64,000 nucleotides of DNA. Origin: Candidatus Omnitrophota bacterium (GTDB taxonomy: Bacteria > Omnitrophota > Gorgyraeia > Zapsychrales > Zapsychraceae). A program made the position numbers and the translations under genes. The notes under the pieces were generated by a model. That model was given only the letters and a program-made list of their open reading frames with translations, did no database searches and had not been told where the DNA came from. Each line of letters begins with the position of its first letter. Position 1 is the first letter of the stretch. Below, piece by piece: positions 37,751 to 55,355 of this stretch. The stretch spans positions 34,390 through 98,389 of the forward strand of contig JADFXQ010000002.1 in NCBI GenBank assembly GCA_015233495.1, in the 5' to 3' direction.

Positions 37751-37811
37751 CCGCAGTCCTAATTATTTCCTTCTTTCCGGATTAGAAGTTTTCCCGTTGA
37801 CTCAAAAGAAA

Positions 37812-37856
37812 ACGCTTTCCCGGAGGGCGCGCAAAGCGTCTTTTTTGCCGTTTTTA
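37812..37856 (+). terminator. terminator-like hairpin with T-run immediately upstream of the giant gene
   Basis: acgcttt(37812-18) / aaagcgt(37833-39) 7-bp stem with a 14-nt GC-rich loop, followed by cTTTTTTgccgTTTTTa. Confidence 0.3.
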
Positions 37857-37873
37857 TCGGGTATACTTTAAGT

Positions 37874-40800
37874 GTGGATACTATTTTTATTATTAGTATT
37901 TATAAACATATCTTGAAACGCTTGGTGGCTTTTGTTGTTTTGTTGTGTTTTTTGCTTTTAAATGTCCGGCCGCTTGCCGCGGGAGGTTGGCCACAGCCGC
38001 CATCCGTGACCATTCTTGATTCTTCGCGCCCTTTTACGCCATTTTTACTTAAAGGCGTCACCATCGATCCGCGCAATCCTTTGCATTTTGATTTTATCTT
38101 TGATCCCGGTCAATCTTCGATGTCCACGAATCATTCGGAAAAAGAAGCGAGCCGCATCGTCAAATATTTTTTGGCGGCTTTGGCTTTGCCGGAAAAAGAC
38201 CGCTGGGTCAATCTTTCTTTGCAAGAGAGCGGCAGGATAATCCCGGAAATTTTTGGTTTGACTGATATGGGACGGGATATGTTGTCGCTGGATTTTGTCT
38301 TAAAGCAGTTGTCTGCCTCTTTGACTCACCCGGAACAAAAATTAGGGGCGGAGTTTTGGCGCCGCGTTTACGCGAAGGTCAAGAAAGAATACGGCACAGA
38401 TGAAGTTCCGGTTGACTCGGTTACCCGGGTATGGATCGTGCCGGCGCAAGCCGTGGTTTATACGAGCGGGCAAAGCGCTTTTGTGGCTAAAAGCAGTCTT
38501 AAGGTATTAGCGGAAGAAGATTATTTGGCGGGGAAACCGCAAGGACTTAAAGCTTCGGAACCAGATAGCCTCAAAGGTAAAAATACCGCAGCGGTGTTCA
38601 CGGATATATTTCGCGCGATTGTAATCCCGGAGATCGAAAAGGAAGTAAACACAGGTGACGCCTTTGCGCCATTACGGCAGATTTATAACGCCCTGGTCCT
38701 CGCTACCTGGTTTAAACAACAGTGCAAAGCCGGGACGTTGGGAAAGGGCTATTTCGGACAAAAGAAGATTAAAGGAATTGATGTCGCAAAAGACCGGTTT
38801 AAAGAAAAAATTTATGAACAGTATACGGAGTCTCTGAAAAAAGGCGTTTATAATTTCATCAGGGAATATAACGATCCTTTGACGGAGGAAACCGTTTCCC
38901 GTCAATATTATTCCGGCGGGATCGAGTTTACGACAGAGGTTGATCGAAAAGTTCAGTTTTTGCCTTTAGAGAAAGAAGTGTTTCTTGCCGTCCTGAGAAA
39001 ATCGTCTCCGGTGTTAGAAGGCGCTTCAATATATATTGATCCGATAACCAAGGAGGAGAAACTACCGCGTCCCAGGATGTCTTCGCCGGTCAAGCCTCCC
39101 GTATTGGACGACAGTTCTCGGCAAGCGTTAGAGGATTTGGGATTGTCTTATAAAGAATTCCAACGATTGACTTTCGCGCAGACCGGATTCGAAGAAGCAT
39201 TGTTTAACGCTTTTCCGGCTTTAAAATTAAATATATTTTCTTTGCGGACGCAGGAACGTTTTTCCCGCGCGGTGCGGTCGCTGACGCGGGAATTGCGTGA
39301 GAATAGCGTAGAGCCAAAAATCGCTTTAGGGTTCGCGATCCGGTTTGCGATTCAACAATTCTATCAGGATATTTTGCCGGAAAATCTTTCATCGGCGGAT
39401 AACCAACGTTGGAATCAGATTGTCTCTCAATATTTTCGCGATTTTCTTCCCTCCCCGGGCCCGCGGATACCGGAGTATGTAAAACGGAAATACAATTTTG
39501 ACGATAACATGAACGGGAGGGTTGCCCGCGCCTTGATATCGCGAACCCCGGTTGTGTTTAAAGCCGCGAAAAACAGCGATGGATTGTTGACAGATGAGCT
39601 GCGACGGCAGGCCGGCGAGGGCAACATTGATTTGAGCGTTGTTTGGGGACATCCTTCCACGGATGAACGGCAGTTGATCGGCGGCCGCGTGCCTAAGGAG
39701 GGTAAAGACGGTTTGGTTTTCGGTTATGGCGTTTTAACGGAGAAAATTGAAGCCGCGCGCAGTGATCCGGGGAAGAAATATGTTGTGCTGATCAAAAATA
39801 TCGAAGCCGTTGATCCGGAAGTCCGCTTGCTTTTGCAAGAAATGCTGCGGATTTCCGAATTGTCCCATCCGGGTTTGGGTCAGGTATATCTTCCCGAGAA
39901 TTTTCAGATTATTTTCACCATGGCGGAAACCGCGAATATCGAAGACGATTCTTTTTACGACCGGGTCAGCGTAAAAACAGTTCCCGCCGATCTAACTTTC
40001 AAGCCGAAAACCCTTCCCGGTGTAACGGCAGGCGTCACGGCGGAGAATTACCGTTCTGTCTTAACCATTAAAGGGTCAGCGGACAATCCGGTTTTGGTTT
40101 TACCGGGGACACAGATCCGTTTGAACCAGGAATTTCGCGGGATCACTACTGAAAATATGTTTTCTATGATTTATGAAAAAACCGGTCTCTTGCTTGATTT
40201 CGATACGGTTCGGATGTTGGTCGCCATGGCGAACGCAGTCAAGTCCGGAGAACCCATTCTGCGGCTAATTGGTCCTACGGGTGTGGGAAAAACATTCACC
40301 AGCCGCGGATTTGCTTTATTGCGGGGCTCGTCTTTTTTCGCGAACCCGGTAAGTCCCGGCACGGAATTCACGGATTTGATCGGCAGTTTTGAGCAACAAG
40401 ACAATCACTTGTTCGCGTTTAACGGTGAGACCACATTTAAGGAGCGATTGGAAAACGGCGGGGTGGTGGCTTTGAGCGAGCTTAACACTTTAGTTGACAA
40501 TAATCAAAAAGCGAGCTTGGCGTGGTGGTTGACCCAGATCAGCCAGACTACCCCGGACGCCGACGGTTATCGGACGATTTATCTTACCGAAGTTCCGGTT
40601 GCGCCCGGACAACCGCGGCCGAGCATCCGGATTCATCCGCAGTCCTTGATTGTTGTTGATGTGAACCCGGCAGTCTATGAAAGCCGCGCCGCTTTTCCGG
40701 ATGTCTTCGAGGAATCCACGCCCGAATTGACTATTGGTTCGTATATTAGCGCTATTGCCGCGGATAGAGCGGCGGATATCCATAAATTATCTCAAACCGC

Positions 40801-43800
40801 CCGGCAATTTTTAAGCCTGGGTGTTCGGATTCAAGGACGGATGATTCCGGGGATTAGTGATCCGGCACGTTTGGAAGTTTTGGCAGAGGCAATAGGGACT
40901 CGGTATTATGAAGTGGTTGCCGCGTATGATCAGCACAAGTTTGGCGGTAAAGATCAATTTCATTTTTCAAATCGAGAACTTAAACGCATAGCGGAGGATG
41001 TTTTATTATGGATGGAGCGCGGCTTGAGTTCGGACGCGGCGCTCGCGAAAGCCTTTACTCATCATTTGGTGGTGCGCTGGAACGCGCAAAATGACCGGGA
41101 TTATGCCGCGAATTTGATACCTGACGCGGAAGTTACGCTGGGTTTACGGGAGTTTGTGGAACATGAAGTTTTCGTTGCTAATCGGCGGGCGCATATACGG
41201 GTTGCGTCAGGGATAGATACTCAAGTCTTGATCGATGAAATTAAAGACGGCAGGGATGATGTTGTGGTTCGCATTATTAACGTGACCCAGGAATTGGACA
41301 GGTTCAAATTGGAAGGCGGCCGTGTGGTGAATGAAGACGGCCGGGGTTACGCATTTGCCGAGGGGTTGATTGGCCGGATGATTGCACAAGCCGAAACAGC
41401 GCCGGATAAAAAATTTCTTTATGTTTTTGAGAATATCCATAATCTGTGGCCGGAAGACGCGGTGGGTTTGAACGAAATTCTTCAGGAAGGGACATTGTCG
41501 GTGCGGGGCAGGGATACCAAGCGTAGTATTCCGGTAAATGCCGGCATAATGTCCATCAGCCGTCAGGACACGGACTGGACCTGGTCGGAAGCGGAGAAAT
41601 CCCGGTATGTGACCTATGTTTATGAACGGGATACTATTGGCGAACAAATTCAAAACCGGCTTAACGATTATTTTCGCGCTAATGGTCTTGAGCCGGCAGT
41701 CGCGATAGCGTTAAGCCGGATGTTTTGGCGTAGGCTCAAGGTGTCTATAGAATATATTCAGTCGAATAAAGCTTATCAGAACCGGGTGAGCGAGCGCTCC
41801 GCGCTTAAATGTATAGAACTATTTATAAAATTGACCGCGGAAAGACAGGAGGCCGGCGGCTTGAATGTGGCGGATTTGATCAATTTGTTTCGAAAGTCTT
41901 GCGATTTGACGTTTGGGATCAGTGTTCCGCGACGTGTTTTACTGGATAACTCACAGAGTCGGGTTGCAGCTGTTTATCAGAATTTATTTACGGTTTTTGG
42001 CGCTCTGCCGTTTGGCGCGCCGTTGAACGCAGTGACATCGCAAAAATCTGGCGGGGCGGAAACCGCGGCGGGCGAAGCTGAAGCCGGTAATGTAAATTTG
42101 AATGGGGAAATCGCGCTAGCGCTCGCTGCAGCCAAATTAGATTTAGAAATGGCGGATGCAGAAGACCGGTCAAGCGCTTTGCAGAAATTGAAAGAGGTTT
42201 TGGAACTGTCTGAGCATACCGGAGATTTGACGGGAGAGCCAACCGCGGCGCAAGATTTAAAAAATCTTGATGTAGTCAGGGCAGTATTGAAACAGAGTTC
42301 GCATAAGTTTCGGGGAAGTGTTACAGGGTTCGACGTTAATGAACACGGCGTAGTAGTTTGGACTAACTTAGATGAGATATGGATACAAAAAAATGATGGT
42401 AAAATCTTAACGACACGATTTCCTGGCATGATCAGAAATGTAAGGATTTCAGCGGATGAACTGGTGTACATTTCGGGTGAAAATACGGTTTGTGTAATCA
42501 AACAAGATGACCTGAATCATTTGATATCTTATCCCACATATTTAACCACTGATAATGTTGAAGCGATTCAACATTTGGTTATTAGTAATGGAGTAGTTGC
42601 CGCGGCTACCGCAAAAGGGGGGCTTTTATTGTGGGAAAAGGAAGGGAATCAATGGTTAGAAAAGATTAGATGGAAGGATGGTTTTCCAATAGAGCAATTA
42701 TTGTTATCAGGTGAAACTTTAGCGGTGAGGATGCGTAATGGTACTTGTCGCATTTGGCAGAAAAATGGCGGAGCTTGGGAACAGCAATCCGGATTGGTTT
42801 TGGGCCATTCGTCGGATAACCGCTTTAAGAACCGAATTTGGCAAATCGTTGCAAAGGTCAGGAGAATATTTTTGGGGGGAGATAAAGGATATATTCCTGG
42901 AGTGAGTCAGATAGCTTTGTCTGAGACTGAATTCGCGATTTTTACTCATTCCGGAGAAATCATTATGTGGGCAAAAGAAGTCGGGCAATGGCGAGCAGAG
43001 CCGGTTTTACGAACTTCGATTGAACCGGGTGTTTATAGGGTGGGGCATTTTGTTTTGAAAGACAGCGCTTTGGTTTATTGCAGTTTTAATGGGGAAGTAC
43101 GTTTATGGGGAAAACATGGCGACAAATGGATCAAAGAACCATTGATAAAAGACGATACTTTTGGAACGAATGTCCGGTTTTTTGATTTTAATAATGGGGT
43201 CTTGGCTATTGGCGGAAACGTGGGCGCCCTGAAGACTTCATCAGCCGAACCAAAAGGGGGCATCCGCGTCTGGGAACGGGAATTTAGTCTATGGGGACCT
43301 AAATGGCAGCTTCGAATCAAGGAAGATAATTTAGATGGTTTGGCGGATTTGAAGGTATCGAAAGGCGCGGTTCGTGTTCTTGCTGTGACCTTGAATGGGC
43401 AAATATTGAGTTGGGTTAATCAAATTATTAAATGGCAAATCGATCCAGTGAGAACGATAAAGCATTCGGGCCAGATTTTTGGGGCGCAAACGCACTCGGG
43501 TAATTTGCTGGTCGTGACTACCGACGCGGTCGATGTTTATCAACCTGGCATAGGGATAGTTTATGGGACAGCGGTAATGCAGTTTAACGGCGCTGAAGAT
43601 GTGCCTGTGAGTGATTTAGCGGATGAGGTAGTCCGAATGAGTGTAAGAGAACCGCCGCGTCCGGAAATTTTGGCACAGCAAGAAGCGCGGGCAAAACAGG
43701 AGATTATTTTGGGAGACGAAAAAAAGCGAGCGCCGGCTTTGCTTAAATTGGGGGAAACGTTGACTGCGGCGGAACAGGCTGACCATTTGGAAAAGGAAGC

Positions 43801-46800
43801 TGAGGTTGAATCGGCAACATTAGCGGATTTGGATGTGGTGGTTGGGTTGATGAGCGAATCGGGCCACAAGTTCGCGGGCAAAATCAAAGGATTCGAGTCG
43901 AATGAATATGGCGTTTTAGCGTGGAGCGATCAGAAGGAAATTTGGTTGAAGGACGCGAAGGGGGATATTATCGAGTATCAATTTGATCAAGAAATCAGAT
44001 ACGCCAGAATCGCTCGGGATCGATTAGTTGTCGCGGATATTGACAGAATTTATATATGGGAGAAAGATAATGGGGTTTGGCAGCGACGAGCTTTTGTTTC
44101 AGATTTGTTGCCGGGTTATACTAAGGGGCTGGCGATTTCGGATGACGGCGTAGTCGCGGTTTGCAACAGCTACGGACAAATTTATTTATTTAAAAAACAA
44201 AATGGGCAATGGAAAAGCGCGAATAATATAAAAGTATTTTTTGTTATTGGAATGATTTTTGATCGTTTAGAAAAATTTTTGCTTAAAACAAACGTGGGTA
44301 TGGTTTTATGCCGTTTTATTGAGAAATGGGATTTCAGAATGCGCAGTAACCGATCATTTGACAAAATATATTTCCGGGGCGAATTATTGGTGGTAGAAGA
44401 AGTGGTGGATTATGATGGAAAACAGTATTTTGGCGTTTTTGAAAGAAAAGACGGCCGCTGGGCGCGGGTTTTTAAAAGAAAATTCGATGGACCGATTAAA
44501 AATTTTGTTGTTTTGAAAAATGTCTTAACTGTGGTTGATAAGCAAGGTGTGGTTTTTTCAGTTAGCAAATCTGAAGGTAAATGGGTTATGAGAGAGAGGA
44601 GGATAGGATCCGAACAGGTTTTATACATATCTGAGGATGTGTGGTTATCGGCGATAGGTGAAGTGCAGTTGGTATATAAAGATGGGGATCAGCCTGAGCA
44701 ATATCTTTTTTTACCTGTTCGATTCGCGGAGGTTTCTTATGTGGCAAGAGACAAAGATTTTTTAGCTATAGGCACTAAATCCGGATCGATTTATTTATAT
44801 GAGAAAAAAGATTATTTGCCGATAGGAAATACAAGTCGGATGTCTGCATATCTGGAACCGCAAAACAAGTGGAGATTGGCAGGACAGGCAGATAACTTGG
44901 GAACAATTAAGGGATTAAACATTAAAGATGGAAAAGTAATTGTGGCAACGGAAGACGGAAGTGTTAAATGGTTTGGGGTTGGCCGCGGGATGGTTCATGA
45001 AGGAATAGTGCGCAATCTGAATGGCGAGGGCCAGATGGATCAGCGGAGTTTGAGTAAAAAAGTTACCCGGTTAAAGGTGAAATATGAAAGACATAATCAA
45101 ACCGGATCTCCGGAAGATCAAAAGTTTGAGCCGCTGGTTGGCTATGGGAACCGGCCGTTTTATTTTGGCGCGGATCGAGACGGAAATGTATATCTGAATT
45201 TTGACAATCGTTGGTATCGGACGCGGCACACTTTGACGCAGCCCTTTGATCACGCTCTGTTGAGCGGGCCCCGCACAGCGCCCGTCAATGGTCGGCCGAC
45301 GGAGATTTTTCCCGTCCGGTTAGACGCGGTCAAGCATCCGGACAGCCGGCTGGAGCGGTCTTTCACCAAAAAAGATTTTTTGATGACTACCGGGGATTTG
45401 ACGGAAGAAGAAAAAGCGGTTTTACTGAATTTTGAGATATCCCGTCAGGTTGATTTGGAAGGTCCTTCCGGAGCCGGGAAAACGAGCATTGGGAAAGAGA
45501 TCGCGCTTTTGCTCGGCCTGCCGGTTTTTGTGTTGCAGATGCACGGTCAGCGGGATTTATCGGATTTGATCGGTGCCTATCGCGAGGATGAACACGGCCG
45601 GTATTATCTTTCCATGAAACCCAAACCAGTAGCTAAGGATATTTTGGAAGCTGCGGTCGCGCCGGCATTGGTGAGTCGGTTATTGGAAAAAGGGGTTATT
45701 CGCGTTGATGACAAGGATCCAGAGGTTTACTACTGGGGGTATGGGATTTATTCTTTGGTTGATTTGGAAGAGCGTTTGGACGCTTTGGGCGGCATACTCG
45801 GCCAACCGGACAAAAAGGCGCTGCGTGCCTTGGTGCATTATCGTTTGCCGCTTTTGGAGTTTTTGACGTGGGGCGGGATATATATCGTGGATGAAGGCGC
45901 GATCGGGGAACAGGGTCAGGCTTTGATCAACTGGTTTAGCCGGATTGTGAACGGTGATTCCGAAATCAGTATTGATGATTTCACTGGACTCTCAATTCGG
46001 TTTAAGGTGCATACGGATTTTCATTTGATTATCACTAACAATTCTCCGGAAGACACGGCCGGCCGGGAGTTTTTGAAAAGCGAAATCGCGGCTAATATCG
46101 GGTTTATTTATGTCCCGGAAGATGATTCCCCGGACACTATTGAAGGTTTGTTGGAACATTTTTTACAAGATGAATTAGCCGGGACAGATGTCCGGGGAGT
46201 GAAAAGCGCTCTGCGTAAATTGTATTTGGATATCAAAGCGGCAGTGGGAACCAGCATCGGGACAGATAAAAAAGAGCGGTATTATATTTCCAAACGGGAA
46301 ATCCGCCGGGTGGCAGCCCGGCTATTGTTTGAATACAAAAAAGATCCGGAACATTTTGATTTTACTTATAGTTTTTATAAGGCTTTGCGGATTGTGTTTG
46401 AAGCCGCGTTTTCGCATGAACAAGAGAGACAATTCGTGATGGATAAAATTGTCACTCATTTGAAAGAGACATTTCCGGAACGGGCGCAAGCGATTGATCA
46501 ATTTAAAGCCAAGCTCGAGGCGGAAATTAACAATCGTTTTGCTTTTGCTTCAACTGAAAATGAGAAATGGGTTTTATGGGTGGCAGATGAACTTTTAAAC
46601 CAGGATGAGCCGTTGTTATTGATCGACGAACGCGGGGCCAGGACCAGAGCGATGTTAAGGCGATTGCAAGAAAACCGGGGCGCGGTATTCGATCTGGTCG
46701 ACGCGGTTCCGAGTCATACCAGTTTCGAACTTTTAGGAGCGATTCTGCCGGAATTTTCGGATAAGGGGATTGCCAAACCCGGGAGCAGGATGCGTTTTGT

Positions 46801-49800
46801 GAAAGGCCGGCTCATTGAACATCTGTTGACCAAAGAAGAAATGGAGCAGGCCGAGAGCCAAGGCGGAAAAAGTCAAGAGGTCATTGTCTGGATCAGGAAT
46901 ATCGATCAATGGAACGAAGATATCCGCAGTAGTCTCAACGGTCTTTTAGAAAACGGATATATTGACATTGAAACCAGCCGGGGTGAAACGATCCGGTATT
47001 ATAAACCGCGTCACGTGCGATTTATCGCCGGGATCAATGCCCAGAGCGGCGAGGATTTTTCCAGCGCGTTTTTCAACCGCTGGGTGAAAGTCGGTGTCCT
47101 GGCAGAACCGCGGCCGGATCAAAATGTTGACAAGGGAGAATCGGATTTTCAAAAGGTGTTGAGCGATGTTTATGAAATGGATTCCCGCGAGGCCTATTTA
47201 TTCGCGCGTTTGTTTTTAGAGACGTCCCGCCGGGAAGCTCAGAGACAATGGAGCGTTCAGGAGAGTTATGATTTAACTCCCGAGACATTTTACCTGATTG
47301 CCGCGGCGGTGCGGTTGGCGAAACAACAAAGTCCGCAGTGGCAAGCCATTTTGGCCGCGTTTGAACGGCAGAATTATGATCCGCGCCGGGAATCGCCGAC
47401 TAACGCGGCGCAACGCGATCTGGAGGCCGAGTATCGTCGTTTGTCTAACCGGATATTGACCCAGGAAATCGCCCGTTTGTTTTTACCGCGGTTTCGAACC
47501 GCTACTTCCGCTGATACCGGGGACCGCAAGCTGGTGGAAGATAGTATCCGGGCCGTTTTTAACCTTCAGGGGCCGATTACGCTGGATACGACAGATATTG
47601 TTTCACCCGATTTGTCAGCGGTCCCGGACAAGATCCGGCTGTATTACACGACAAAAATCCGGGAATATTTGAGCGCTCTACAGCGGGCGTCGCAGATGAA
47701 TCGCGGTATTGATATGTTGGGCGAATCAGGCGCCGCGAAAACCACTTTGGCCGAACATTTGGCTCACCGCACGGGGAGAAAGTTTTACAAATATCAGTCG
47801 CACGCGAAAAGTGAGGTGACAGATCTGACGATCGAGCTTAGTCAGACGGAAGACGGCGTCATTCAGAAGCGGTACAAGGAATTTTATGCTTGGCTGAAAA
47901 ATGGGAATGCGGTGATTGATTTTGACGAAGCCAACGCGGCGCCGCATATTTTATGGGCGCTGGAAGCGGTCCTGAATGGAGAGAGCGTTATTTATCCGGC
48001 TTTTCCGGGTGAGAAACCCTTTAAGATCGGTGATAATATCACGATTGTTTTTACTCGTAACCCCCTGCGTTATGCCGGCCGGCAACAGATTGAAAAACGG
48101 ATCACAGATAAAATGGTTGTCTTATGGATTGATTTGCCTGATCCGGAGGAAAAAGCGAAAATTGTTCAGACGTTTTACGGGGTTTGGGCCTTAGAGGAAG
48201 AAACGGCAGTCGCGCCGACTGAGGAACTACACCCGAAAGAGAAGGCCAATATCCCACATGAAAGCGATCTGCCGGTTTCGGACACTATTGATATGGACAC
48301 GGATATGAAGGAAGGCCGGGAGATACCGACTATGCAAGATGAAAAAAATTTAACCGAACCACCGGCGGTTTCCACTGCCCCTAAACCCGCGGCGCGCGGG
48401 GTATTCACGCCGGAACTTTATCCGCGGACTCGTCTGGGGGTCTATAATCGATTCGATGCGGCCACAGAAAAATTTTGGCTTGAACGAGGCGAGTATAAAT
48501 CCGTGCCAGTGACTCCGAAGACCGGGAGGGAAAGAACGATCATTGAGGAGACAAGAGATATTTTTCAGGGACAATATATTTTGCGTCTGGGACATGCCTT
48601 CAGCCGCTTGCCGTCGGCTGGAGCGGATATGGAGTTTATTGATTTGAGTGTGAGGGATACCGCGGGTAACTTGCTGGACATTCCGGTCGAGATTACGCGT
48701 GACAGCGCGGACAATTATTATATTCGGCAAAAAGACGCAGATGCTCCGGCAGCTGAGGTTGAAATCCGTTACACAGTCACAGTAGCGAAAGAATATTTCG
48801 GGAAGATTATTCCCAATAACCCGGACATTGGACCGGATATCCGCGAGACCATGACTGTGATGGGTCTCACCCCCAATAACCCGGACATTGGACCGGATAT
48901 CCGCGAGGCCATGACTGTGATGGGTCTCACCGGAAAGGAACGGGATTTCCGGGAGGTTTTATATAAAATGATCGCGTTTACCCGGGATTTTAAATTAGAA
49001 AAAATAACCGCGGAAGGACCAAGTAAATTTTTACGGATTTTAAGATCGGGTGCGGGTGTTTGCCGGCATGGGGCGCAGATATTTGCCGCAACGGCTTGGG
49101 CGATCGGAATGCCGGCCAGGTTAGTCGTTTCCGATATTCATGAATTCGTGGAAGTGGAGGTTCCGGGAATCGGCTGGATGCAAATTGACCTCGGCGGGGG
49201 CGGCGATCCCGCCAACATGGATTTGAGTCCGCTGGCGAATGAGCGGCATAATCCGGCGTATGCCAATGATTTTCCCGAGCCGGAAAATTATAAACAAAAA
49301 AAGGAGTTGTATCGGGACCTATATGAGAAGGCGATGAAGGATCAGGGGATTAAACCGCCGGTATCTCCCCGGCCGAATCGCTCCGGCGAAACGGGCGCGG
49401 CGGATAACGACGCGGCGATAGGCGGTCATTTTGATCCGAAACTGGAAGGGGAGCGCATTGACGCGGCTTTGGCAAATTTGATCCGCGAACAGGGGGCGAC
49501 GCTTAACCAGGATATTGAAAATTCGTTTCAGAGCGGCACGGTCATCGCCGAGCAAGTATTCGAACGGATGAAGCGGGCTATTGAAGCGGGGATCCGTTAT
49601 AAACGGGAAATGAAGAAAAATGGGTTGGAGATTGATCCCGTGGCCTGGATGCTGCGCTTACCGAATCCGTTTGTCAAGCGGACACGGGTTACGAAATTGC
49701 AGACCACCGCAGTGGCGGTTTTGTTTGACGCGAGCGGCAGTATTAGCGTTATCCGTGAGCCGGTCACTTACGCGATCGCCGTTACCGGAAAGAATTTTCA

Positions 49801-50548
49801 GCAATTGAACGATACGGCGCCGCAGCATTTTCATTATGATCTTTCGACTTATACCCATCTTGAACCCGAGACGATTGATAGCATGAGTCAGCGGATGAGC
49901 GCGGAAGATATGGATAAACAATTGATTAAATTAGCGAACTTGATCGGGAACGGCGGCGGCAATGATTTGCAACGGGCAATGTCTTTTAAGCTGACGAATG
50001 AACAAGGTACAGGTTTTCTTGATGCCCGCGAGGCGCGAACCGCGAAAGTGAAATATATGATCGTGTTTACCGACGGAGCTGACGCGGCCATTCGGCAGAA
50101 CGGAAATGATTATGAGCCCCAGGATTCTTTTAAGGAAGTTTTACGAAGATATCGTGACGCCGGGATTGACTTGATTGCCATCGGGATCGGCGCAGGCTCA
50201 AAATATGTGCGGGCGTTCAAAGGCGAGGGACAGCATTTTGTCCAGATTGACGATAAGCATCCCGAAAACATCGCGGAAGCAATCGCGGCTATCGCGGAGC
50301 TGAAATCCAGGGGAATGGGTATTTTGCCGGACGGCGACATCACGCCTTTGATGCAATTCTCGCAAAGCAGTCCGATCAGCGATGCAGACGCGAATAAAGT
50401 CGGCGGTATTGATTTGACCGCGGACTGGGTGACTATTGAAACGCATACCGCGGGCCGCGAAATTCAAATTCCTCGGCTTCCTGAAAATTTTGACTGGTCG
50501 CGAGTGCAGGGATTAAACCCGCTGATTCTGGAATTTTATTCGTATTAA
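37874..50548 (+). CDS. giant secreted multi-AAA+ ATPase / beta-propeller / transglutaminase-like / vWA(MIDAS) protein, 4224 aa
   Basis: A single uninterrupted 12,675-nt ORF. GTG start with no obvious SD; an in-frame TTG at 37913 is an alternative. N-terminal signal peptide (KRLVAFVVLLCFLLLNVRPLAA). Walker A motifs GPTGVGKT (40271), GPSGAGKT (45461) and GESGAAKT (47720), with matching AAA_5-type Walker B regions. Duplicated W-rich repeat module at 42295-45420. TGase core GVCRHG...H...D at 49049-49189. vWA MIDAS motif DASGS at ~49730. Confidence 0.85.
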   Translation: MDTIFIISIYKHILKRLVAFVVLLCFLLLNVRPLAAGGWPQPPSVTILDSSRPFTPFLLKGVTIDPRNPLHFDFIFDPGQSSMSTNHSEKEASRIVKYFLAALALPEKDRWVNLSLQESGRIIPEIFGLTDMGRDMLSLDFVLKQLSASLTHPEQKLGAEFWRRVYAKVKKEYGTDEVPVDSVTRVWIVPAQAVVYTSGQSAFVAKSSLKVLAEEDYLAGKPQGLKASEPDSLKGKNTAAVFTDIFRAIVIPEIEKEVNTGDAFAPLRQIYNALVLATWFKQQCKAGTLGKGYFGQKKIKGIDVAKDRFKEKIYEQYTESLKKGVYNFIREYNDPLTEETVSRQYYSGGIEFTTEVDRKVQFLPLEKEVFLAVLRKSSPVLEGASIYIDPITKEEKLPRPRMSSPVKPPVLDDSSRQALEDLGLSYKEFQRLTFAQTGFEEALFNAFPALKLNIFSLRTQERFSRAVRSLTRELRENSVEPKIALGFAIRFAIQQFYQDILPENLSSADNQRWNQIVSQYFRDFLPSPGPRIPEYVKRKYNFDDNMNGRVARALISRTPVVFKAAKNSDGLLTDELRRQAGEGNIDLSVVWGHPSTDERQLIGGRVPKEGKDGLVFGYGVLTEKIEAARSDPGKKYVVLIKNIEAVDPEVRLLLQEMLRISELSHPGLGQVYLPENFQIIFTMAETANIEDDSFYDRVSVKTVPADLTFKPKTLPGVTAGVTAENYRSVLTIKGSADNPVLVLPGTQIRLNQEFRGITTENMFSMIYEKTGLLLDFDTVRMLVAMANAVKSGEPILRLIGPTGVGKTFTSRGFALLRGSSFFANPVSPGTEFTDLIGSFEQQDNHLFAFNGETTFKERLENGGVVALSELNTLVDNNQKASLAWWLTQISQTTPDADGYRTIYLTEVPVAPGQPRPSIRIHPQSLIVVDVNPAVYESRAAFPDVFEESTPELTIGSYISAIAADRAADIHKLSQTARQFLSLGVRIQGRMIPGISDPARLEVLAEAIGTRYYEVVAAYDQHKFGGKDQFHFSNRELKRIAEDVLLWMERGLSSDAALAKAFTHHLVVRWNAQNDRDYAANLIPDAEVTLGLREFVEHEVFVANRRAHIRVASGIDTQVLIDEIKDGRDDVVVRIINVTQELDRFKLEGGRVVNEDGRGYAFAEGLIGRMIAQAETAPDKKFLYVFENIHNLWPEDAVGLNEILQEGTLSVRGRDTKRSIPVNAGIMSISRQDTDWTWSEAEKSRYVTYVYERDTIGEQIQNRLNDYFRANGLEPAVAIALSRMFWRRLKVSIEYIQSNKAYQNRVSERSALKCIELFIKLTAERQEAGGLNVADLINLFRKSCDLTFGISVPRRVLLDNSQSRVAAVYQNLFTVFGALPFGAPLNAVTSQKSGGAETAAGEAEAGNVNLNGEIALALAAAKLDLEMADAEDRSSALQKLKEVLELSEHTGDLTGEPTAAQDLKNLDVVRAVLKQSSHKFRGSVTGFDVNEHGVVVWTNLDEIWIQKNDGKILTTRFPGMIRNVRISADELVYISGENTVCVIKQDDLNHLISYPTYLTTDNVEAIQHLVISNGVVAAATAKGGLLLWEKEGNQWLEKIRWKDGFPIEQLLLSGETLAVRMRNGTCRIWQKNGGAWEQQSGLVLGHSSDNRFKNRIWQIVAKVRRIFLGGDKGYIPGVSQIALSETEFAIFTHSGEIIMWAKEVGQWRAEPVLRTSIEPGVYRVGHFVLKDSALVYCSFNGEVRLWGKHGDKWIKEPLIKDDTFGTNVRFFDFNNGVLAIGGNVGALKTSSAEPKGGIRVWEREFSLWGPKWQLRIKEDNLDGLADLKVSKGAVRVLAVTLNGQILSWVNQIIKWQIDPVRTIKHSGQIFGAQTHSGNLLVVTTDAVDVYQPGIGIVYGTAVMQFNGAEDVPVSDLADEVVRMSVREPPRPEILAQQEARAKQEIILGDEKKRAPALLKLGETLTAAEQADHLEKEAEVESATLADLDVVVGLMSESGHKFAGKIKGFESNEYGVLAWSDQKEIWLKDAKGDIIEYQFDQEIRYARIARDRLVVADIDRIYIWEKDNGVWQRRAFVSDLLPGYTKGLAISDDGVVAVCNSYGQIYLFKKQNGQWKSANNIKVFFVIGMIFDRLEKFLLKTNVGMVLCRFIEKWDFRMRSNRSFDKIYFRGELLVVEEVVDYDGKQYFGVFERKDGRWARVFKRKFDGPIKNFVVLKNVLTVVDKQGVVFSVSKSEGKWVMRERRIGSEQVLYISEDVWLSAIGEVQLVYKDGDQPEQYLFLPVRFAEVSYVARDKDFLAIGTKSGSIYLYEKKDYLPIGNTSRMSAYLEPQNKWRLAGQADNLGTIKGLNIKDGKVIVATEDGSVKWFGVGRGMVHEGIVRNLNGEGQMDQRSLSKKVTRLKVKYERHNQTGSPEDQKFEPLVGYGNRPFYFGADRDGNVYLNFDNRWYRTRHTLTQPFDHALLSGPRTAPVNGRPTEIFPVRLDAVKHPDSRLERSFTKKDFLMTTGDLTEEEKAVLLNFEISRQVDLEGPSGAGKTSIGKEIALLLGLPVFVLQMHGQRDLSDLIGAYREDEHGRYYLSMKPKPVAKDILEAAVAPALVSRLLEKGVIRVDDKDPEVYYWGYGIYSLVDLEERLDALGGILGQPDKKALRALVHYRLPLLEFLTWGGIYIVDEGAIGEQGQALINWFSRIVNGDSEISIDDFTGLSIRFKVHTDFHLIITNNSPEDTAGREFLKSEIAANIGFIYVPEDDSPDTIEGLLEHFLQDELAGTDVRGVKSALRKLYLDIKAAVGTSIGTDKKERYYISKREIRRVAARLLFEYKKDPEHFDFTYSFYKALRIVFEAAFSHEQERQFVMDKIVTHLKETFPERAQAIDQFKAKLEAEINNRFAFASTENEKWVLWVADELLNQDEPLLLIDERGARTRAMLRRLQENRGAVFDLVDAVPSHTSFELLGAILPEFSDKGIAKPGSRMRFVKGRLIEHLLTKEEMEQAESQGGKSQEVIVWIRNIDQWNEDIRSSLNGLLENGYIDIETSRGETIRYYKPRHVRFIAGINAQSGEDFSSAFFNRWVKVGVLAEPRPDQNVDKGESDFQKVLSDVYEMDSREAYLFARLFLETSRREAQRQWSVQESYDLTPETFYLIAAAVRLAKQQSPQWQAILAAFERQNYDPRRESPTNAAQRDLEAEYRRLSNRILTQEIARLFLPRFRTATSADTGDRKLVEDSIRAVFNLQGPITLDTTDIVSPDLSAVPDKIRLYYTTKIREYLSALQRASQMNRGIDMLGESGAAKTTLAEHLAHRTGRKFYKYQSHAKSEVTDLTIELSQTEDGVIQKRYKEFYAWLKNGNAVIDFDEANAAPHILWALEAVLNGESVIYPAFPGEKPFKIGDNITIVFTRNPLRYAGRQQIEKRITDKMVVLWIDLPDPEEKAKIVQTFYGVWALEEETAVAPTEELHPKEKANIPHESDLPVSDTIDMDTDMKEGREIPTMQDEKNLTEPPAVSTAPKPAARGVFTPELYPRTRLGVYNRFDAATEKFWLERGEYKSVPVTPKTGRERTIIEETRDIFQGQYILRLGHAFSRLPSAGADMEFIDLSVRDTAGNLLDIPVEITRDSADNYYIRQKDADAPAAEVEIRYTVTVAKEYFGKIIPNNPDIGPDIRETMTVMGLTPNNPDIGPDIREAMTVMGLTGKERDFREVLYKMIAFTRDFKLEKITAEGPSKFLRILRSGAGVCRHGAQIFAATAWAIGMPARLVVSDIHEFVEVEVPGIGWMQIDLGGGGDPANMDLSPLANERHNPAYANDFPEPENYKQKKELYRDLYEKAMKDQGIKPPVSPRPNRSGETGAADNDAAIGGHFDPKLEGERIDAALANLIREQGATLNQDIENSFQSGTVIAEQVFERMKRAIEAGIRYKREMKKNGLEIDPVAWMLRLPNPFVKRTRVTKLQTTAVAVLFDASGSISVIREPVTYAIAVTGKNFQQLNDTAPQHFHYDLSTYTHLEPETIDSMSQRMSAEDMDKQLIKLANLIGNGGGNDLQRAMSFKLTNEQGTGFLDAREARTAKVKYMIVFTDGADAAIRQNGNDYEPQDSFKEVLRRYRDAGIDLIAIGIGAGSKYVRAFKGEGQHFVQIDDKHPENIAEAIAAIAELKSRGMGILPDGDITPLMQFSQSSPISDADANKVGGIDLTADWVTIETHTAGREIQIPRLPENFDWSRVQGLNPLILEFYSY
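42295..45420 (+). repeat. internal tandem duplication of a ~520-aa Trp-rich beta-propeller-like module (protein level)
   Basis: Module 1 starts HKFRGSVTGFDVNEHGVVVWTNLDEIWIQKNDGKIL. Module 2 starts HKFAGKIKGFESNEYGVLAWSDQKEIWLKDAKGDII. Both contain recurring phi-W-x-K-x-G-x-W repeats. Confidence 0.6.
48811..48930 (+). repeat. perfect 2 x 60-bp in-frame tandem duplication inside the giant gene
   Basis: 48811-48870 and 48871-48930 differ at only 2 positions. They encode PNNPDIGPDIRE(T/A)MTVMGLT twice. Confidence 0.9.
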
Positions 50549-50621: not shown

Positions 50622-52925
50622 TTAACGCGGCCAGCGGTTTTGAATCTCTTGGTTATGGGCCAGGTAAAAGGCAATCCATTGGTTCACCAGCGATTGGCCT
50701 TGATTCATCCGGTTTTGGTCCAGGGCGCTAAACCCTGCGAGCCGCGTTTGCAATCCTACTAACAGTTTGTCCCGGTATTCATTTCCTAATTGCGGAACAA
50801 TTTTGTTCAATTGATCCGGGTCAACGCTTCTTGCCTCGTAATAATCCAAAGACAGTTTTTCTCGCAGGGCCAATAATGTTGCGATCGAATCAATGGGCGG
50901 GTTGGGCTGTTGCAGTTCAAAGAGGGTGTGGAAAAAATGTTCTTGGCAATTCGCGGCGGCCCGCGTTCCATACGGATCGGGGAGAAAAACCGCGATTTCG
51001 CCATAGTCGCGGGTTTTAATGAAGTGTTGTCCTTGTTCGTCTAAAGTAAGGGGTTGCAGGTCCCGGACAAAAATGATCAAATCCGGACTAAAATTTTTCA
51101 GGGTATATTTTTGGGCGAGCTTATCAGTGATGCGGATGTGTTCAATGCGGAGGTTTTTCCCAAAATCCAAAAGCGGCCAGAGCGGATATTCCCAGCTTTC
51201 TTGACCGGAGATCAGGCCGATATTTTTGCGGCTCTGCTGTTTGACATATTGCGCGGCGAGTTTATATCCGGCGCGCAGTTCCGGCCGCATGAAAAAATAT
51301 TGGTCAGACCGCGGCGTGGCAAAGATGGACGTTTTATGGGTATTGAATAGACTGCGCGTAGGATTTTGTAAAAGCGCCGGCCAGGAGAAAAAAAGGATTA
51401 ACCCCGCGGCCAGCCAAACTAACGCGCGCGTTAGCAAACGGTTAGAGGTTTCCCCGAAACGGGAAACGACGATTCCGAACAGAGGAGAAAAGAGCGCAAA
51501 GAAGACCAGATGAAACCGGCTATGCCAAGGCTGCCATTTGATCGTCAGACAAAAAAGCAGAAAACCGGTTAAAAGACACAGCAGATAGCGCGGCCCAGCG
51601 GGATACAAGCGGCGGGGCAGAAAGCCGAGGAATAAAATAGCGGCAAGTCCGACGAGAAGATGCGCCGGGTTTCCCGCGGTATCTTCATGAAAATTCCGGG
51701 GAGGGATGGCGAAGGGTATGTCTAAGAAAGTGATGCTGGATTCGGAAATGCCGATTCCTAAAGCAGCGTGTATGGACTTGACCGCGCGCCAGAGGGCTTT
51801 ATTTGTTTCCGGAGAACTGGTCCCCAGATGCAAGGCGAGGTTGCGCGCGACATTGGAAACCGCCAGCCGCGGTGACATATTGGTGACGCTGATACCCTGG
51901 ACATCCGGGTGGGGAATAAAAGGGTTGGCGCTGAGTTGGTAATTGCGTATTCCTTGGGGAAGCGAAAAAAATAAAAGACAACAAAATAAAAGGCCAAGAT
52001 TTTTTAATCCGTTTTGGGGCTGTTTTATTTGCAACCGTAACTCCCAAATAACAAAAGGGAGCAGAGCCGGGATAATTGTGCTTTTGGTAAGGCAGCCGAT
52101 TCCCAAGGCCAGACCGGAAAAAAGAAAAGCGTTTCGGCTGTGCCGTTGGCGATATTCCCATAAAAAAGCCAGACTGCTGACTGCCCAAAACGTGACGACA
52201 TAATCGTTTTGGGTTGTGGTGGCTTGCGCAATTCCCATGGGAAGCGTCACGGCAAAAAACGCCGCAGCGATTTGGCCGAAGCGCCCGGCGCCGAGCAAGG
52301 CGGCGATCCAAGCGGCGCCGATCACACTGCCGACCATGCTCGCCCACTGCACAGAATTCGCAAAACGGTCATTGCCGCTGAGGATTTGCAAATGCAAGAT
52401 TATATATTCGGCTCCGGGAGCGGTAAACAGCTGGCGGTTAGAATGCGTGGGGTAAAAAGCGACACTGCGGTTTTGGATCCAGTGCGGGACCCGTGCCATG
52501 TGATACGTCATGGAATCAAAATTATTAGGAGGAGCGGTGAGGGCAATGATGCCGGTCAGGAGGATGGTGACTAAAATAAGGGCCAGGAGAATTTTTTCGC
52601 TTAAAGAATAAGCGGCGATTCTGACCAGAGCCGGGCAGACGGGCGGGGGAGGTCCGTTGGCTTTTTTTAAAAAGGAGGGCGGGGTTCCGAATAAAAAGTA
52701 AAGGTTGATTCCCCCCACCGCAAACCAAAGGACCAGCAGACTCGCCGCGGTGAGGCAATGCAACAGGCTGAGGATTTCTGTGCTGACAACGATCAGACTG
52801 CCGAGAAGCACTGCAGAGCCGAGCAGAGATTTGCGCCAGTCCTCTGCGGGAAGAGCGGAACGCCGGTTAAGGTTGAACGCGGTGAAAATCAGCGATAAAG
52901 GAAGCAAAAGGGCTAACATAGACAA
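50622..52925 (-). CDS. GT-C fold membrane glycosyltransferase (ArnT/PMT-like)
   Basis: 767 aa, N-terminal polytopic TM region, NFDSMTYH loop motif and a large C-terminal soluble domain. Convergent with the giant gene. Confidence 0.55.
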   Translation of the reverse strand: MSMLALLLPLSLIFTAFNLNRRSALPAEDWRKSLLGSAVLLGSLIVVSTEILSLLHCLTAASLLVLWFAVGGINLYFLFGTPPSFLKKANGPPPPVCPALVRIAAYSLSEKILLALILVTILLTGIIALTAPPNNFDSMTYHMARVPHWIQNRSVAFYPTHSNRQLFTAPGAEYIILHLQILSGNDRFANSVQWASMVGSVIGAAWIAALLGAGRFGQIAAAFFAVTLPMGIAQATTTQNDYVVTFWAVSSLAFLWEYRQRHSRNAFLFSGLALGIGCLTKSTIIPALLPFVIWELRLQIKQPQNGLKNLGLLFCCLLFFSLPQGIRNYQLSANPFIPHPDVQGISVTNMSPRLAVSNVARNLALHLGTSSPETNKALWRAVKSIHAALGIGISESSITFLDIPFAIPPRNFHEDTAGNPAHLLVGLAAILFLGFLPRRLYPAGPRYLLCLLTGFLLFCLTIKWQPWHSRFHLVFFALFSPLFGIVVSRFGETSNRLLTRALVWLAAGLILFFSWPALLQNPTRSLFNTHKTSIFATPRSDQYFFMRPELRAGYKLAAQYVKQQSRKNIGLISGQESWEYPLWPLLDFGKNLRIEHIRITDKLAQKYTLKNFSPDLIIFVRDLQPLTLDEQGQHFIKTRDYGEIAVFLPDPYGTRAAANCQEHFFHTLFELQQPNPPIDSIATLLALREKLSLDYYEARSVDPDQLNKIVPQLGNEYRDKLLVGLQTRLAGFSALDQNRMNQGQSLVNQWIAFYLAHNQEIQNRWPR

Positions 52926-52938
52926 AGTCGCGCGGGGA

Positions 52939-53628
52939 TTAACGGCTCTTAAAATATTGAAAAATGCCCCAATACATTTTCCAGGCTTTATTCCAATTGA
53001 TTTTTTTGCCGTCTTGATGCGTGCGGGCCGTGTAGTCGATCGGGATTTCCAGGATCCGGCAGCCGCGGTTGATCAATTTGGAAGTGATTTCCGTTTCAAA
53101 CGTAAAGTCCGAGGAGGTGATTGAAATTGTTTGCAGGATCGAACGGGGAATCAGTTTAAAACAGGTGTTGATATCCGTCAATTTTGTCCGGTGGAGGAGA
53201 TTAAAAGTCAGGTTGGAAAAAATATTCGCGAACCGGTTAATCAAAGTCATGCCGCGCTGACTGCCCAAAAAACGCGAGCCATAGGTGACGTCCGCTTTTC
53301 CCGCGATAATTGGTTTTAAGAGCGCCGGGTAATAATTCGGCGAGTATTCTAAATCCGCGTCCTGGATGAGCACCAGATCTCCGGAGGCTAAACGAATGCC
53401 GCTGGCCAAGGCGTTGGTCTTTCCCGCATTGTTTTGGTGGATGATTTTGATAAAACTTTCCGCAGTGTATTTTTGCAGAATCGCCGCGGTTTGGTCGGTT
53501 GATCCGTCATTGACGACAATAATTTCGAGGTTGAGATTCTCGGCGGATTTGACGGTTTTGATTTCTTCCAGGACGGCTTCGACGGTGTTTTCTTCATTGT
53601 AAGCTGGGATAATAACCGAGATTTTCAC
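52939..53628 (-). CDS. GT2 polyprenyl-phosphate glycosyltransferase (GtrB/ArnC/DPM1-like)
   Basis: MKISVIIPAYNEENTV...VVNDGSTD...QDADLEY motifs. 229 aa. Confidence 0.75.
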   Translation of the reverse strand: MKISVIIPAYNEENTVEAVLEEIKTVKSAENLNLEIIVVNDGSTDQTAAILQKYTAESFIKIIHQNNAGKTNALASGIRLASGDLVLIQDADLEYSPNYYPALLKPIIAGKADVTYGSRFLGSQRGMTLINRFANIFSNLTFNLLHRTKLTDINTCFKLIPRSILQTISITSSDFTFETEITSKLINRGCRILEIPIDYTARTHQDGKKINWNKAWKMYWGIFQYFKSR

Positions 53629-53640
53629 GGGAACTCGCTT

Positions 53641-54357
53641 TTAAGATTTTGATTTGGCGCAAACCATGACTACAGATTGCCCGAAAGGCGGCGGCGCGCC
53701 TTTTTCCAAGGTTTGCAGCAACGGGACTGCCTGGTCCAGACAACGGCAGGCGTTTTTGTTGAATTGCTTTTGTTTTAAAATTTTTCCGGCAATGAACCAG
53801 GTGATGGTTCCGAACATATTCATGTAAAAAATCGCGGCGACCTTAAAACCAGCTTTGGCCGCCGCGGCGCTTAAGGATTTTTTAGTGTAGCGTCGATAAT
53901 GTCCGACCAAGGCGTCTAAAGACCCATATAAGCCGGGGAATGCGGGGGTTAAGACCACCAAACGGCCGCGCGGATTTAAGAGAGAATGGATGTGCCGCAG
54001 GGCTTCGACATCGTCGGATATGTGTTCAATGATGTTTAGACACGTCACCGTGTCAAACCCGCCGGTCGGGATTTTTCCCAGAGAGGACCGGTCCGTGATA
54101 TCCAGACGGGCAACTTTCATCCGCGGCATAGCGCTGAATTTATTTTGCAGCGCGCTGATCATCGGCGCGGTATAATCCGAGGCCGTGACTTCCGTTACCG
54201 CCGGGTTGTCTAAAAAAAGTTGGGTAATATCGCCTAATCCGCTGCCGATATCCAAGATTTTTCCGGAAAGGTGCTTTTTAATTACCGCATGAATCCAGGC
54301 GTTATAGCGGGTGGAAGCGCTGAGCGTGTCTAAAGTTTGATAAAGGGCATCGGGCAT
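53641..54357 (-). CDS. class I SAM-dependent methyltransferase
   Basis: ILDIGSGLGD motif I. 238 aa. First gene of the minus-strand three-gene operon. Confidence 0.65.
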   Translation of the reverse strand: MPDALYQTLDTLSASTRYNAWIHAVIKKHLSGKILDIGSGLGDITQLFLDNPAVTEVTASDYTAPMISALQNKFSAMPRMKVARLDITDRSSLGKIPTGGFDTVTCLNIIEHISDDVEALRHIHSLLNPRGRLVVLTPAFPGLYGSLDALVGHYRRYTKKSLSAAAAKAGFKVAAIFYMNMFGTITWFIAGKILKQKQFNKNACRCLDQAVPLLQTLEKGAPPPFGQSVVMVCAKSKS

Positions 54358-54524
54358 AGAATTTTAAGGAGAGCTGAACGCCTATGATAAATTTTAGGTA
54401 ATATAGCAAAGATCGTTTTTGTTGTCATCCTTTTTGGTGAATTTATTTTTTGGGGAGTTTGCTAAACATGAAAATGACCTTGCTTTTTGGCAAGGTATCT
54501 GATAAGAAAAGGGCGTTCTGAGTT
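54358..54524. promoter_or_regulatory. divergent promoter region
   Basis: 167-bp AT-rich intergenic region between divergently transcribed genes. Contains a taatat box and a ccttgc-tttttg-gcaagg hairpin. Confidence 0.3.
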
Positions 54525-55355
54525 TTGGGCCGTGGTGTTTTCGATTACGGGCAAAGACAGCTGAGGGAGGCAAGGTTGCAAAACCCGCCAGGCGAGTTTT
54601 ATAAAATTTTAGGGGTCAAGATTTCGCAATTGGATATCCGGCAAGCGGTGTCGCGGGTATTTGCCTGGGTGGAAAATCGTCAGCGGGTTTATGTCTGCGT
54701 AGCCCCGGCCGCTACCATTGTTTGCGCCCAAGACGACCCGGAATATAAAAAAGTGGTCAATGCCGCGGCTATGGTTACTCCGGACGGCATGCCTGTCGTG
54801 TGGCTCGGACGCTGGCAGGGGCGCCGGGTACAGCGCGTTTACGGGCCGGACTTTATGCGGGCGGTCATTGAGACAGGGCAAGACCAGGGGATCCGGCATT
54901 ATTTTTACGGGGGAACAGAACAGACTCTGCGTAAATTGACGGATAATATCCGGCGCGATTTTCCGCGCGCTCGGATTGCCGGGTCTTGGGCGCCGGAGAT
55001 GATAAAAATAAAAGAAATAGAAAAACGCGAAATTTTGGATAAAATAAATGCCGCTGACCCGGACATTTTATGGATAGGGTTAGGCTCGCCGAAACAGGAT
55101 TTTTGGATGGCGGCGCATCGCGGCCTTTTGTCCGTTCCGGTGATGGCGGGGGTAGGCGCCGCTTTTGATTTTTTAGCCGGAGTAAAACCCCAGGCGCCGC
55201 GCTGGCTGCAACGCGCCGGGCTGGAATGGTTATTTCGGTTGAGTTGTGAACCGCGGCGTTTGGGAAAAAGATACCTGGTGGGCAACGCGCGCTTCATCTA
55301 TTTTTTGCTGCGCGGCGTTCTGCCAAAGTTTTGGGGCAAGGAGAAGCATGATTAA
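54525..55355 (+). CDS. WecB/TagA/CpsF family glycosyltransferase (GT26)
   Basis: KILGVKISQLDIRQAVSRVFAWV...VYVCVAPAATIV...MVTPDGMPVVW family signature. TTG start, with an alternative TTG at 54576 after GGAGG. Confidence 0.7.
   Translation: MGRGVFDYGQRQLREARLQNPPGEFYKILGVKISQLDIRQAVSRVFAWVENRQRVYVCVAPAATIVCAQDDPEYKKVVNAAAMVTPDGMPVVWLGRWQGRRVQRVYGPDFMRAVIETGQDQGIRHYFYGGTEQTLRKLTDNIRRDFPRARIAGSWAPEMIKIKEIEKREILDKINAADPDILWIGLGSPKQDFWMAAHRGLLSVPVMAGVGAAFDFLAGVKPQAPRWLQRAGLEWLFRLSCEPRRLGKRYLVGNARFIYFLLRGVLPKFWGKEKHD

Follow-up and report, generated by a model that had tools for sequence, protein, structure and literature searches.

In prokaryotes, a MoxR-type AAA+ ATPase, a protein with a vWA (von Willebrand factor A) domain and a YebA-like membrane protein with a transglutaminase-like (TGL) domain are encoded together in a widespread three-gene operon (Zhang and Aravind 2012, PMC3495828). 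These authors proposed a role in membrane-proximal, ATP-dependent degradation, in which the vWA protein recruits a substrate, to be unwound by MoxR and cleaved by TGL. They also argued that the six-AAA ancestor of midasin and dynein arose from MoxR "early in eukaryotic evolution". In Pseudomonas aeruginosa, the TGL protein TgpA (PA2873) is essential and has a periplasmic transglutaminase (TG) domain whose transglutaminase activity in vitro is Ca-independent, and its gene is co-transcribed in the operon PA2875-2874-tgpA (PMC3507681). TGL thiol peptidase effectors are also found, although rarely, in vWA-MoxR conflict systems (Kaur, Burroughs, Iyer and Aravind 2020; PMC7159879). Here we analyse a stretch of 64 000 nucleotides from a Candidatus Omnitrophota bacterium (contig JADFXQ010000002.1, positions 34 390 to 98 389 of the forward strand), referred to below as the window, in which a single giant gene encodes AAA+ units, a vWA domain and, between them, a predicted TGL enzyme.

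The giant gene is an uninterrupted open reading frame (ORF) encoding 4224 amino acids (window 37874-50548, + strand, as for all features below). Except at the start residue, its product is GenBank MBF0531693.1, from a metagenome-assembled genome of Candidatus Omnitrophota (111-kb contig). The public name of this entry is only "AAA family ATPase", so the catalytic TGL module is currently unannotated. We conclude that residues approx. 3560-3830 (window 48551-49363) are almost certainly a genuine two-domain TGL module with an intact catalytic triad. The module follows the sixth AAA+ unit and precedes a C-terminal vWA domain of the metal ion-dependent adhesion site (MIDAS) type, and the ATPase part is a single-chain, six-unit midasin-like array.

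A catalytic core of this kind had been pointed out in an earlier note on the DNA sequence. The translation of window 49040-49201 matches the sequence quoted there exactly (LRSGAGVCRHGAQIFAATAWAIGMPARLVVSDIHEFVEVEVPGIGWMQIDLGGG), and the three codon positions are right and in frame: TGC (49061-49063) encodes Cys3730, the predicted nucleophile, CAT (49139-49141) encodes His3756, the predicted general base, and GAC (49187-49189) encodes Asp3772, the third triad member. The transglutaminase-like pattern described in the note holds in general, but not in its wording, since 'GIPAR' is GMPAR here and the His motif reads H-E-F-V-E-V; likewise, the interval quoted is the catalytic core only, and the folded module is larger. 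The proposed hidden Markov model (HMM) check against Transglut_core (PF01841) gave a score above the curated cut-off of 23 bits for the whole protein (25.5 bits, E = 1.7e-5; residues 3710-3772, window 49001-49189), and protein fragments scored 29.3-29.5 bits (E of approx. 1e-6). Nine of 10 relatives tested also scored above the cut-off, with homologue scores on the TGL module reaching 43 bits. At the level of sequence, the match to Transglut_core is well beyond chance.

A single-sequence phmmer search of the TGL region against the PDB gave a chance match only (5hv9, E = 2.4), so a family profile was required. When a profile built from 50 sequences (alignment A1) was compared with all PDB sequences, TgpA from P. 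aeruginosa was the best match, through its periplasmic domain (6g49, E = 4e-6), with peptide N-glycanase (PNGase) of the mouse matched as well (2f4m, E = 4e-4). In the profile alignments, C3730, H3756 and D3772 share columns with the triads of both solved proteins (GFCAH / DAHAWVE / GWLSVD in TgpA and GRCGE / DHVWTE / WLHCD in PNGase). Ig-like repeat regions (NOMO2, E = 0.026) were matched weakly, and below significance, by the C-terminal positions of the same profile.

The structure of residues 3560-3830 was modelled using AlphaFold2 on alignment A1, with a mean predicted local distance difference test (pLDDT) score of 92 and a predicted template modelling score (pTM) of 0.88. In the model, an N-terminal β-sandwich (residues 3560-3638, window 48551-48787; strands within model residues 2-79, pLDDT 95-98) is followed by a helical part and then the core, and a helix at the C-terminus ends the module. 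This closing helix (residues 3804-3823, window 49283-49342; model residues 245-264) is conserved, with a P.P..Y...QGI motif in a second alignment, A2. In model numbering, a helix spanning 171-184 begins with C171 (C3730), H197 (H3756) stands just before the strand 198-204, and D213 (D3772) follows at the end of the next strand, 208-212. In the predicted structure, this placement of Cys, His and Asp on the secondary-structure elements is the canonical papain/transglutaminase arrangement. Foldseek comparison with the PDB yielded 3isr as the best match (E = 1.6e-7, probability 1.00), then TgpA (6g49, 5.9e-5, probability 1.00), 3kd4 (1e-3) and, further down, LapG and PNGase; the top matches are TGL cysteine proteases. 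The matches to 3isr and 6g49 span 238-244 alignment columns and cover both domains.

Conservation of the triad was assessed among relatives retrieved by an exhaustive HMMER search with the C-terminal 1200 amino acids against 1.84 billion representative proteins (E<=1e-3), which yielded 1051 sequences. A word-indexed homologue search with the 321-residue TGL region had returned nothing; given the 1051 relatives from the exhaustive search, this was a false negative. In 99 aligned segments homologous to residues 3500-3830, C3730, H3756 and E3760 (of an H-x-x-x-E motif) are invariant, while position 3772 is Asp in 94, Asn in three, Glu in one and Gly in one. The family motif reads GVCRHR..F..TA.ALG[IL]PAR[YF]V.NE.HA[FW]VEV..P..GW.RIDLGG. 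HMM score, conservation, alignment to solved triads and fold prediction therefore agree in placing an intact Cys-His-Asp triad of the TGL superfamily inside the giant AAA/vWA protein, as the earlier note had suggested. Taken alone, the TGL domain is unremarkable: it belongs to a known superfamily, and automated annotation overlooked it.

The architecture around the module is less ordinary. Pfam recognizes AAA_5 (dynein-related) domains, of the dynein/midasin/CbbQ/GvpN type, and a C-terminal VWA in the giant protein. We resolved the AAA+ units by profile-profile comparison (hhalign) of family alignments made without iteration. Unit 1 (residues 520-760, window 39431-40153) is degenerate, lacking a P-loop, and matches unit 3 with 100%, unit 5 with 99.6% and unit 6 with 96.9% probability. 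Unit 2 (residues 760-960, 40151-40753) is recognized as AAA_5 by Pfam, carries the Walker A motif GPTGVGKT at residue 800 and matches unit 6 at 99.9%. Unit 3 (residues 1060-1310, 41051-41803) is again degenerate (100% with unit 1, 98.9% with unit 5 and 83% with unit 6). Unit 4 (residues 2480-2780, 45311-46213), with GPSGAGKT at residue 2530, has AAA_5, AAA and GvpN-type matches and pairs with unit 6 at 99.9%. Unit 5 (residues 2860-3130, 46451-47263) is degenerate, with ERGARTR at the Walker A position (96.7% with unit 6, 99.6% with unit 1), and unit 6 (residues 3240-3470, 47591-48283), with the Walker A-type sequence GESGAAKT, contains the best AAA_5 stretch (residues 3281-3410) and is the most midasin-like region. 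The P-loop units 2, 4 and 6 match one another with 99.7-99.9% probability and the degenerate units 1, 3 and 5 with 98.9-100%, against 83-97% across the two types. The order is thus a degenerate unit followed by a P-loop unit, three times over, and it looks as if a two-unit module has been triplicated. Comparison of the AAA blocks with all PDB sequences (phmmer) yielded midasin/Rea1 only (6or5, E = 2.7e-16 and 8.5e-9), with no bacterial MoxR-type structure at E<0.01.

Units 3 and 4 are separated by an insert of approx. 1000 amino acids (window 42071-45073) made up of two repeats of approx. 430 residues (approx. 1413-1844 and 1933-2364), which are 26% identical in a self-BLAST (E = 2.7e-24) and give sub-threshold Pfam matches to β-propellers. 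None of the retrieved relatives covers residues 1400-2340. After unit 6, an acidic, proline-rich linker (residues approx. 3470-3560, window 48281-48553; approx. 20% Asp plus Glu over residues 3440-3570) leads into the TGL module. The vWA domain follows at residues 3947-4109 (window 49712-50200), with Pfam VWA scores of 29-34 bits, above the cut-off. Its MIDAS residues are D3952-x-S3954-x-S3956, N4030 and D4067. Across 31 sequences the two Asp and two Ser residues are invariant or near-invariant, while position 4030, the MIDAS Thr, is Thr in 16, Asn in 10 (as in the window protein) and Ile in five.

Comparison with the described systems shows how these parts have been rearranged. The TGL module shares with TgpA the two-domain shape of an N-terminal β domain and a TGL core, with aligned triad columns; TgpA is genetically linked to a MoxR-type ATPase and a vWA/DUF58 protein. 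Identity to TgpA in the structural alignment is 13%. TgpA and YebA are, however, polytopic membrane proteins of approx. 650-700 amino acids with 6-8 transmembrane helices, each encoded by a separate gene, whereas the cassette described here is soluble and has no flanking transmembrane helices. In the MoxR-vWA-TGL operon, as in the window protein, the vWA domain has a predicted metal-binding MIDAS site; the operon nevertheless distributes over three genes what is here a single ORF, whose neighbours are glycosyltransferases and similar genes. Six AAA units in one chain also replace a homo-oligomeric MoxR, and the TGL module is exchangeable for HExxH cassettes in relatives. The solved structure closest in fold, 3ISR, is a putative cysteine protease from Cytophaga hutchinsonii with Bact_transglu_N and Transglut_core domains, and is aligned over approx. 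240 columns that cover both the β-sandwich and the core. It differs in being a stand-alone protein of approx. 290 amino acids with 14% identity to the TGL module, and the TM-scores against it are only 0.33-0.38 because the domain orientation differs. 3ISR is a structural-genomics entry for which we know of no published biochemistry.

With midasin (Rea1/Mdn1) the protein shares six AAA+ units in one chain, an acidic linker, a C-terminal MIDAS/vWA domain and a length of 4000-5000 amino acids. Unlike midasin, it has a bacterial host, alternating degenerate and P-loop units, the propeller-like 1000-residue insert between units 3 and 4, a catalytic TGL module between the ring and the MIDAS domain, and a signal-peptide-like N-terminus. 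PDB sequence searches detected no similarity to midasin outside the AAA units, so that orthology with midasin was not upheld. The vWA-MoxR ternary conflict systems likewise join a MoxR-clade AAA+ protein, a vWA co-chaperone and a peptidase-type effector, but do so as multi-gene loci with a single-AAA MoxR that forms hexamers and with VMAP/iSTAND-type partners; no such partners were seen in the window, for which no PADLOC scan was made. The bifidobacterial PFNA cluster, with AAA-ATPase, DUF58 and TGM genes, is multi-gene too. We found no description of a prokaryotic midasin-like or giant AAA_5 plus TGL architecture in the limited library of literature searched, and a preprint on giant genes of Omnitrophota mentions neither vWA, midasin nor transglutaminase.

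The giant relatives of this protein (3000-6000 amino acids) come from metagenome-assembled genomes of Elusimicrobiota, Omnitrophota and Planctomycetota. They are 34-43% identical over the AAA, TGL and vWA region, and in all three phyla the order AAA unit, TGL, vWA is kept over >1100 residues. The TGL module is also found in stand-alone proteins of approx. 500-600 amino acids in Myxococcota and Bradymonadia (24-32% identity); all 20 of those inspected have signal peptides. Both are predatory groups. These secreted proteins of approx. 550 amino acids (loci L011-L080; for example L060:9452-11161 and L069:9347-11077) form a large family, abundant in these groups, which shares the invariant triad, has a conserved P[VI]LHEY motif right after the signal peptide and is not known to us to have been characterized. 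A location of the stand-alone genes in MoxR/vWA operons was considered and rejected for two cultured representatives: the neighbours are MlaE/MlaD in Lujinxingia, and a kinase and a poly(A) polymerase in Sorangium.

An HMM of the TGL module showed that it is present in only a subset of the large relatives, the rest of which keep the layout of six AAA units and a terminal vWA. In these, the slot ahead of the vWA domain is filled in different ways. Five proteins (class A: P0014, P0017, P0018, P0023 and P0025) have a segment with the motif [ST]AHHE[LF][GA]H, and 13 (class B: P0029-P0032, P0034, P0035, P0037, P0046, P0049, P0053, P0058, P0067 and P0078) have a segment with IIHExRH followed by WN..ED.RID; in some relatives, the slot holds only an acidic or Gly/Ser-rich low-complexity linker. 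HExxH is invariant in all 18 class A and B proteins, and occurs nowhere in the window protein. An AlphaFold2 model of the class B segment (pLDDT 88.8) gave weak Foldseek matches, the top ones all to zinc metallopeptidases (MATCAP, jannalysin with a probability of 0.91, BlaR1, selecase, ERAP2 and ArdC). The predicted fold suggests that the HExxH segments may be undescribed metallopeptidase domains. It is suggestive, although not conclusive, that the slot holds alternative hydrolase cassettes.

We propose that the window protein is a MoxR-type AAA+/vWA/TGL system fused into one polypeptide, with the TGL module acting as a thiol hydrolase. The MIDAS site of the vWA domain would capture a protein or peptide ligand, the AAA+ ring would pull on it or remodel it, and the TGL domain would act on it as a peptidase, isopeptidase or amidase. 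Taken whole, this statement has about an even chance of being right, and its parts differ. That the TGL module is functionally coupled to the AAA and vWA parts is fairly probable; support comes from the conserved AAA-TGL-vWA order and MIDAS residues, from the wide distribution of the MoxR-vWA-TGL operon (PMC3495828) and from co-transcription of the tgpA operon (PMC3507681). A cis-acting TGL effector in a fused system of this kind is better supported than the vaguer activity 'delivered by the AAA/vWA machine' of the earlier note. As to the chemistry, the HExxH cassette that occupies this slot in relatives makes us lean towards a hydrolase or peptidase, yet whether the reaction is hydrolysis rather than cross-linking is finely balanced.

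Several observations weigh against this proposal. Among solved proteins, the closest in sequence is TgpA, for which transglutaminase activity, and not proteolysis, is seen in vitro (PMC3507681). Half of the six AAA units have no P-loop. The HExxH cassettes, on which the comparison of slots draws, have no significant Pfam, PDB-sequence or Foldseek match (none below E = 1e-3 for the class B model). Two stand-alone homologues do not lie beside MoxR/vWA genes, so this clade of TGL domains is independent of an AAA partner. Near-invariant positions flanking the triad are changed in the window protein, namely R3733 to Gly (Arg in 95 of the 99 segments), R3770 to Gln (Arg in 91) and N3753 to Ser, and a further departure of this kind is Glu at position 3757, otherwise Ala. 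None of these substitutions is in the triad itself, but they could alter substrate binding or activity. Lastly, the protein begins with a Sec-like N-terminus, shared with most relatives, and export would place the ATPase where there is no ATP.

The alternative that fares best is a true transglutaminase, forming Gln-Lys isopeptide cross-links or deamidating Gln on substrates positioned by the vWA and AAA parts. The rank of TgpA as best PDB sequence match of the family profile speaks for it, given the Ca-independent activity of that periplasmic domain in vitro (PMC3507681), and both chemistries make use of an identical Cys-His-Asp triad and H-x-[WF]-x-E motif. On the other hand, identity to TgpA is low, most bacterial TGL domains that have been characterized or predicted are hydrolases (LapG, PNGase, the Pei isopeptidases and the 'putative protease' entries 3isr and 3kd4), and the equivalent slot in relatives holds an HExxH segment of hydrolase type. 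We consider cross-linking or deamidation unlikely.

The N-terminus raises a different possibility, that the whole protein is exported and the TGL module is an extracytoplasmic amidase or isopeptidase of the envelope or of a target cell, with peptidoglycan, surface glycans or prey proteins as its targets; adhesion would then be the task of the vWA domain and β-propellers, and the AAA units would not be a cytoplasmic unfoldase. The N-terminal sequence (MDTIFIISIYKHILKRLVAFVVLLCFLLLNVRPLAAGG) resembles a Sec signal peptide or anchor by a hydropathy and charge heuristic only. The sole strongly hydrophobic segment of the protein (residues approx. 13-35, window 37910-37978) is preceded by K/H/K/R and followed by PLAAGG; the hydropathy scan found no second transmembrane or hydrophobic segment, and this one sits 3500 residues from the TGL module. 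Most giant relatives likewise begin with signal-peptide-like segments, and several have further hydrophobic segments. Export would also be in keeping with the signal peptides of all 20 inspected stand-alone homologues, with the periplasmic TG domain of TgpA, with the action of WbmE and Pei enzymes on envelope polymers, and with the location of the giant gene among envelope glycan genes and of an Omnitrophota relative beside BacA and PIG-L genes. Were the protein exported, its P-loop ATPase units would lie outside the cytoplasm, which would favour an extracytoplasmic or target-cell role. Against this, canonical Walker A motifs in three AAA units imply ATP use, neighbourhoods are not conserved between relatives and the signal-peptide call is heuristic; we regard this alternative as distinctly improbable. 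The signal-peptide-like start fits an ATP-dependent function poorly, except if the helix stays uncleaved as an anchor or the site of action is the interior of another cell.

Giant bacterial toxins often contain autoprocessing domains of the papain fold, and the TGL module, lying in cis between flexible acidic or low-complexity linkers, might in the same way cut its own chain, for example freeing the vWA tail or the AAA body. The secreted stand-alone homologues, however, have the same invariant triad and nothing comparable to self-process, and no conserved motif for a cleavage site was seen, although no search aimed at one was made; we consider autoprocessing very unlikely here. Least probable of all, and barely credible, is that the module has lost catalysis and only binds peptides or serves as a scaffold, in the manner of the inactive TGL domains of CC2D2A/CEP76 (PMC3495828): the altered surroundings of the active site (R3733G, R3770Q and N3753S) would fit it, but inactive TGL domains typically lose Cys or His, whereas the conserved triad, with Cys and His kept in 99 of 99 segments and Asp in 94, is intact here and C3730 is one of just 10 Cys residues in the 4224 of the giant protein, so a non-catalytic role is unlikely. 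We therefore retain the fused AAA+/vWA/TGL hydrolase as our preferred reading.

Just upstream of the TGL core, Tandem Repeats Finder identified a 60-bp tandem duplication (window 48812-48931; 2.0 copies, 1 mismatch). It encodes PNNPDIGPDIRE[T/A]MTVMGLT twice, the copies differing at one base (ACC/GCC). The duplication forms an extra loop that is absent from seven homologues (a gap in all homologues of alignment A2), and pLDDT falls to approx. 60 there. It is either a very recent in-frame event or an assembly artefact.

The giant gene sits within a long run of cell-envelope glycan genes (window 14603-37147 and 50622-55355). These include an ABC exporter, a B12-radical SAM enzyme, three PMT_2-type glycosyltransferases, GT2 and GT4 glycosyltransferases, a polysaccharide deacetylase and a GNAT gene, together with a Wzy_C O-antigen ligase-like gene, a GH26-like gene, WecG/TagA and a methyltransferase. 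A comparison of the gene neighbourhoods of the giant relatives revealed no conserved neighbours; one Omnitrophota relative adjoins BacA and PIG-L genes. Immediately upstream of the giant gene is a 727-bp gap (37148-37873) with no listed ORF of at least 100 amino acids. It ends with a GC-rich stretch, a T-run and TATACT approx. 6 nt ahead of the GTG start; no obvious Shine-Dalgarno sequence was seen before this start, and an Rfam scan of the window found zero known RNA families.

What is new here is the context: in a bacterium, a midasin-like chain of six AAA units whose MIDAS domain is preceded by an exchangeable catalytic cassette, built on the known MoxR-vWA-TGL theme. The MoxR-vWA-TGL operon is among the commonest uncharacterized three-gene modules of prokaryotes, and its mechanism is so far a proposal. 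With the three activities naturally fused, their stoichiometry and order are fixed, which is strong genomic evidence for their joint action. Structural work could also start from one construct, and the mechanistic proposal becomes experimentally tractable. HExxH in the same slot of relatives adds a comparative argument for hydrolysis. The six-AAA, MIDAS-terminated layout means that a midasin-style architecture exists in bacteria. More speculatively, and as a suggestion we hold only tentatively, the family may represent undescribed bacterial single-chain, six-AAA 'midasin-like' machines with a swappable TGL, HExxH or empty slot, in which case each could be a self-contained ATP-dependent protease with a built-in vWA receptor, maybe exported against other cells. 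If this is true, a prokaryotic fusion of six AAA units, TGL and vWA would also be relevant to the proposal that midasin and dynein originated from MoxR/TGL.

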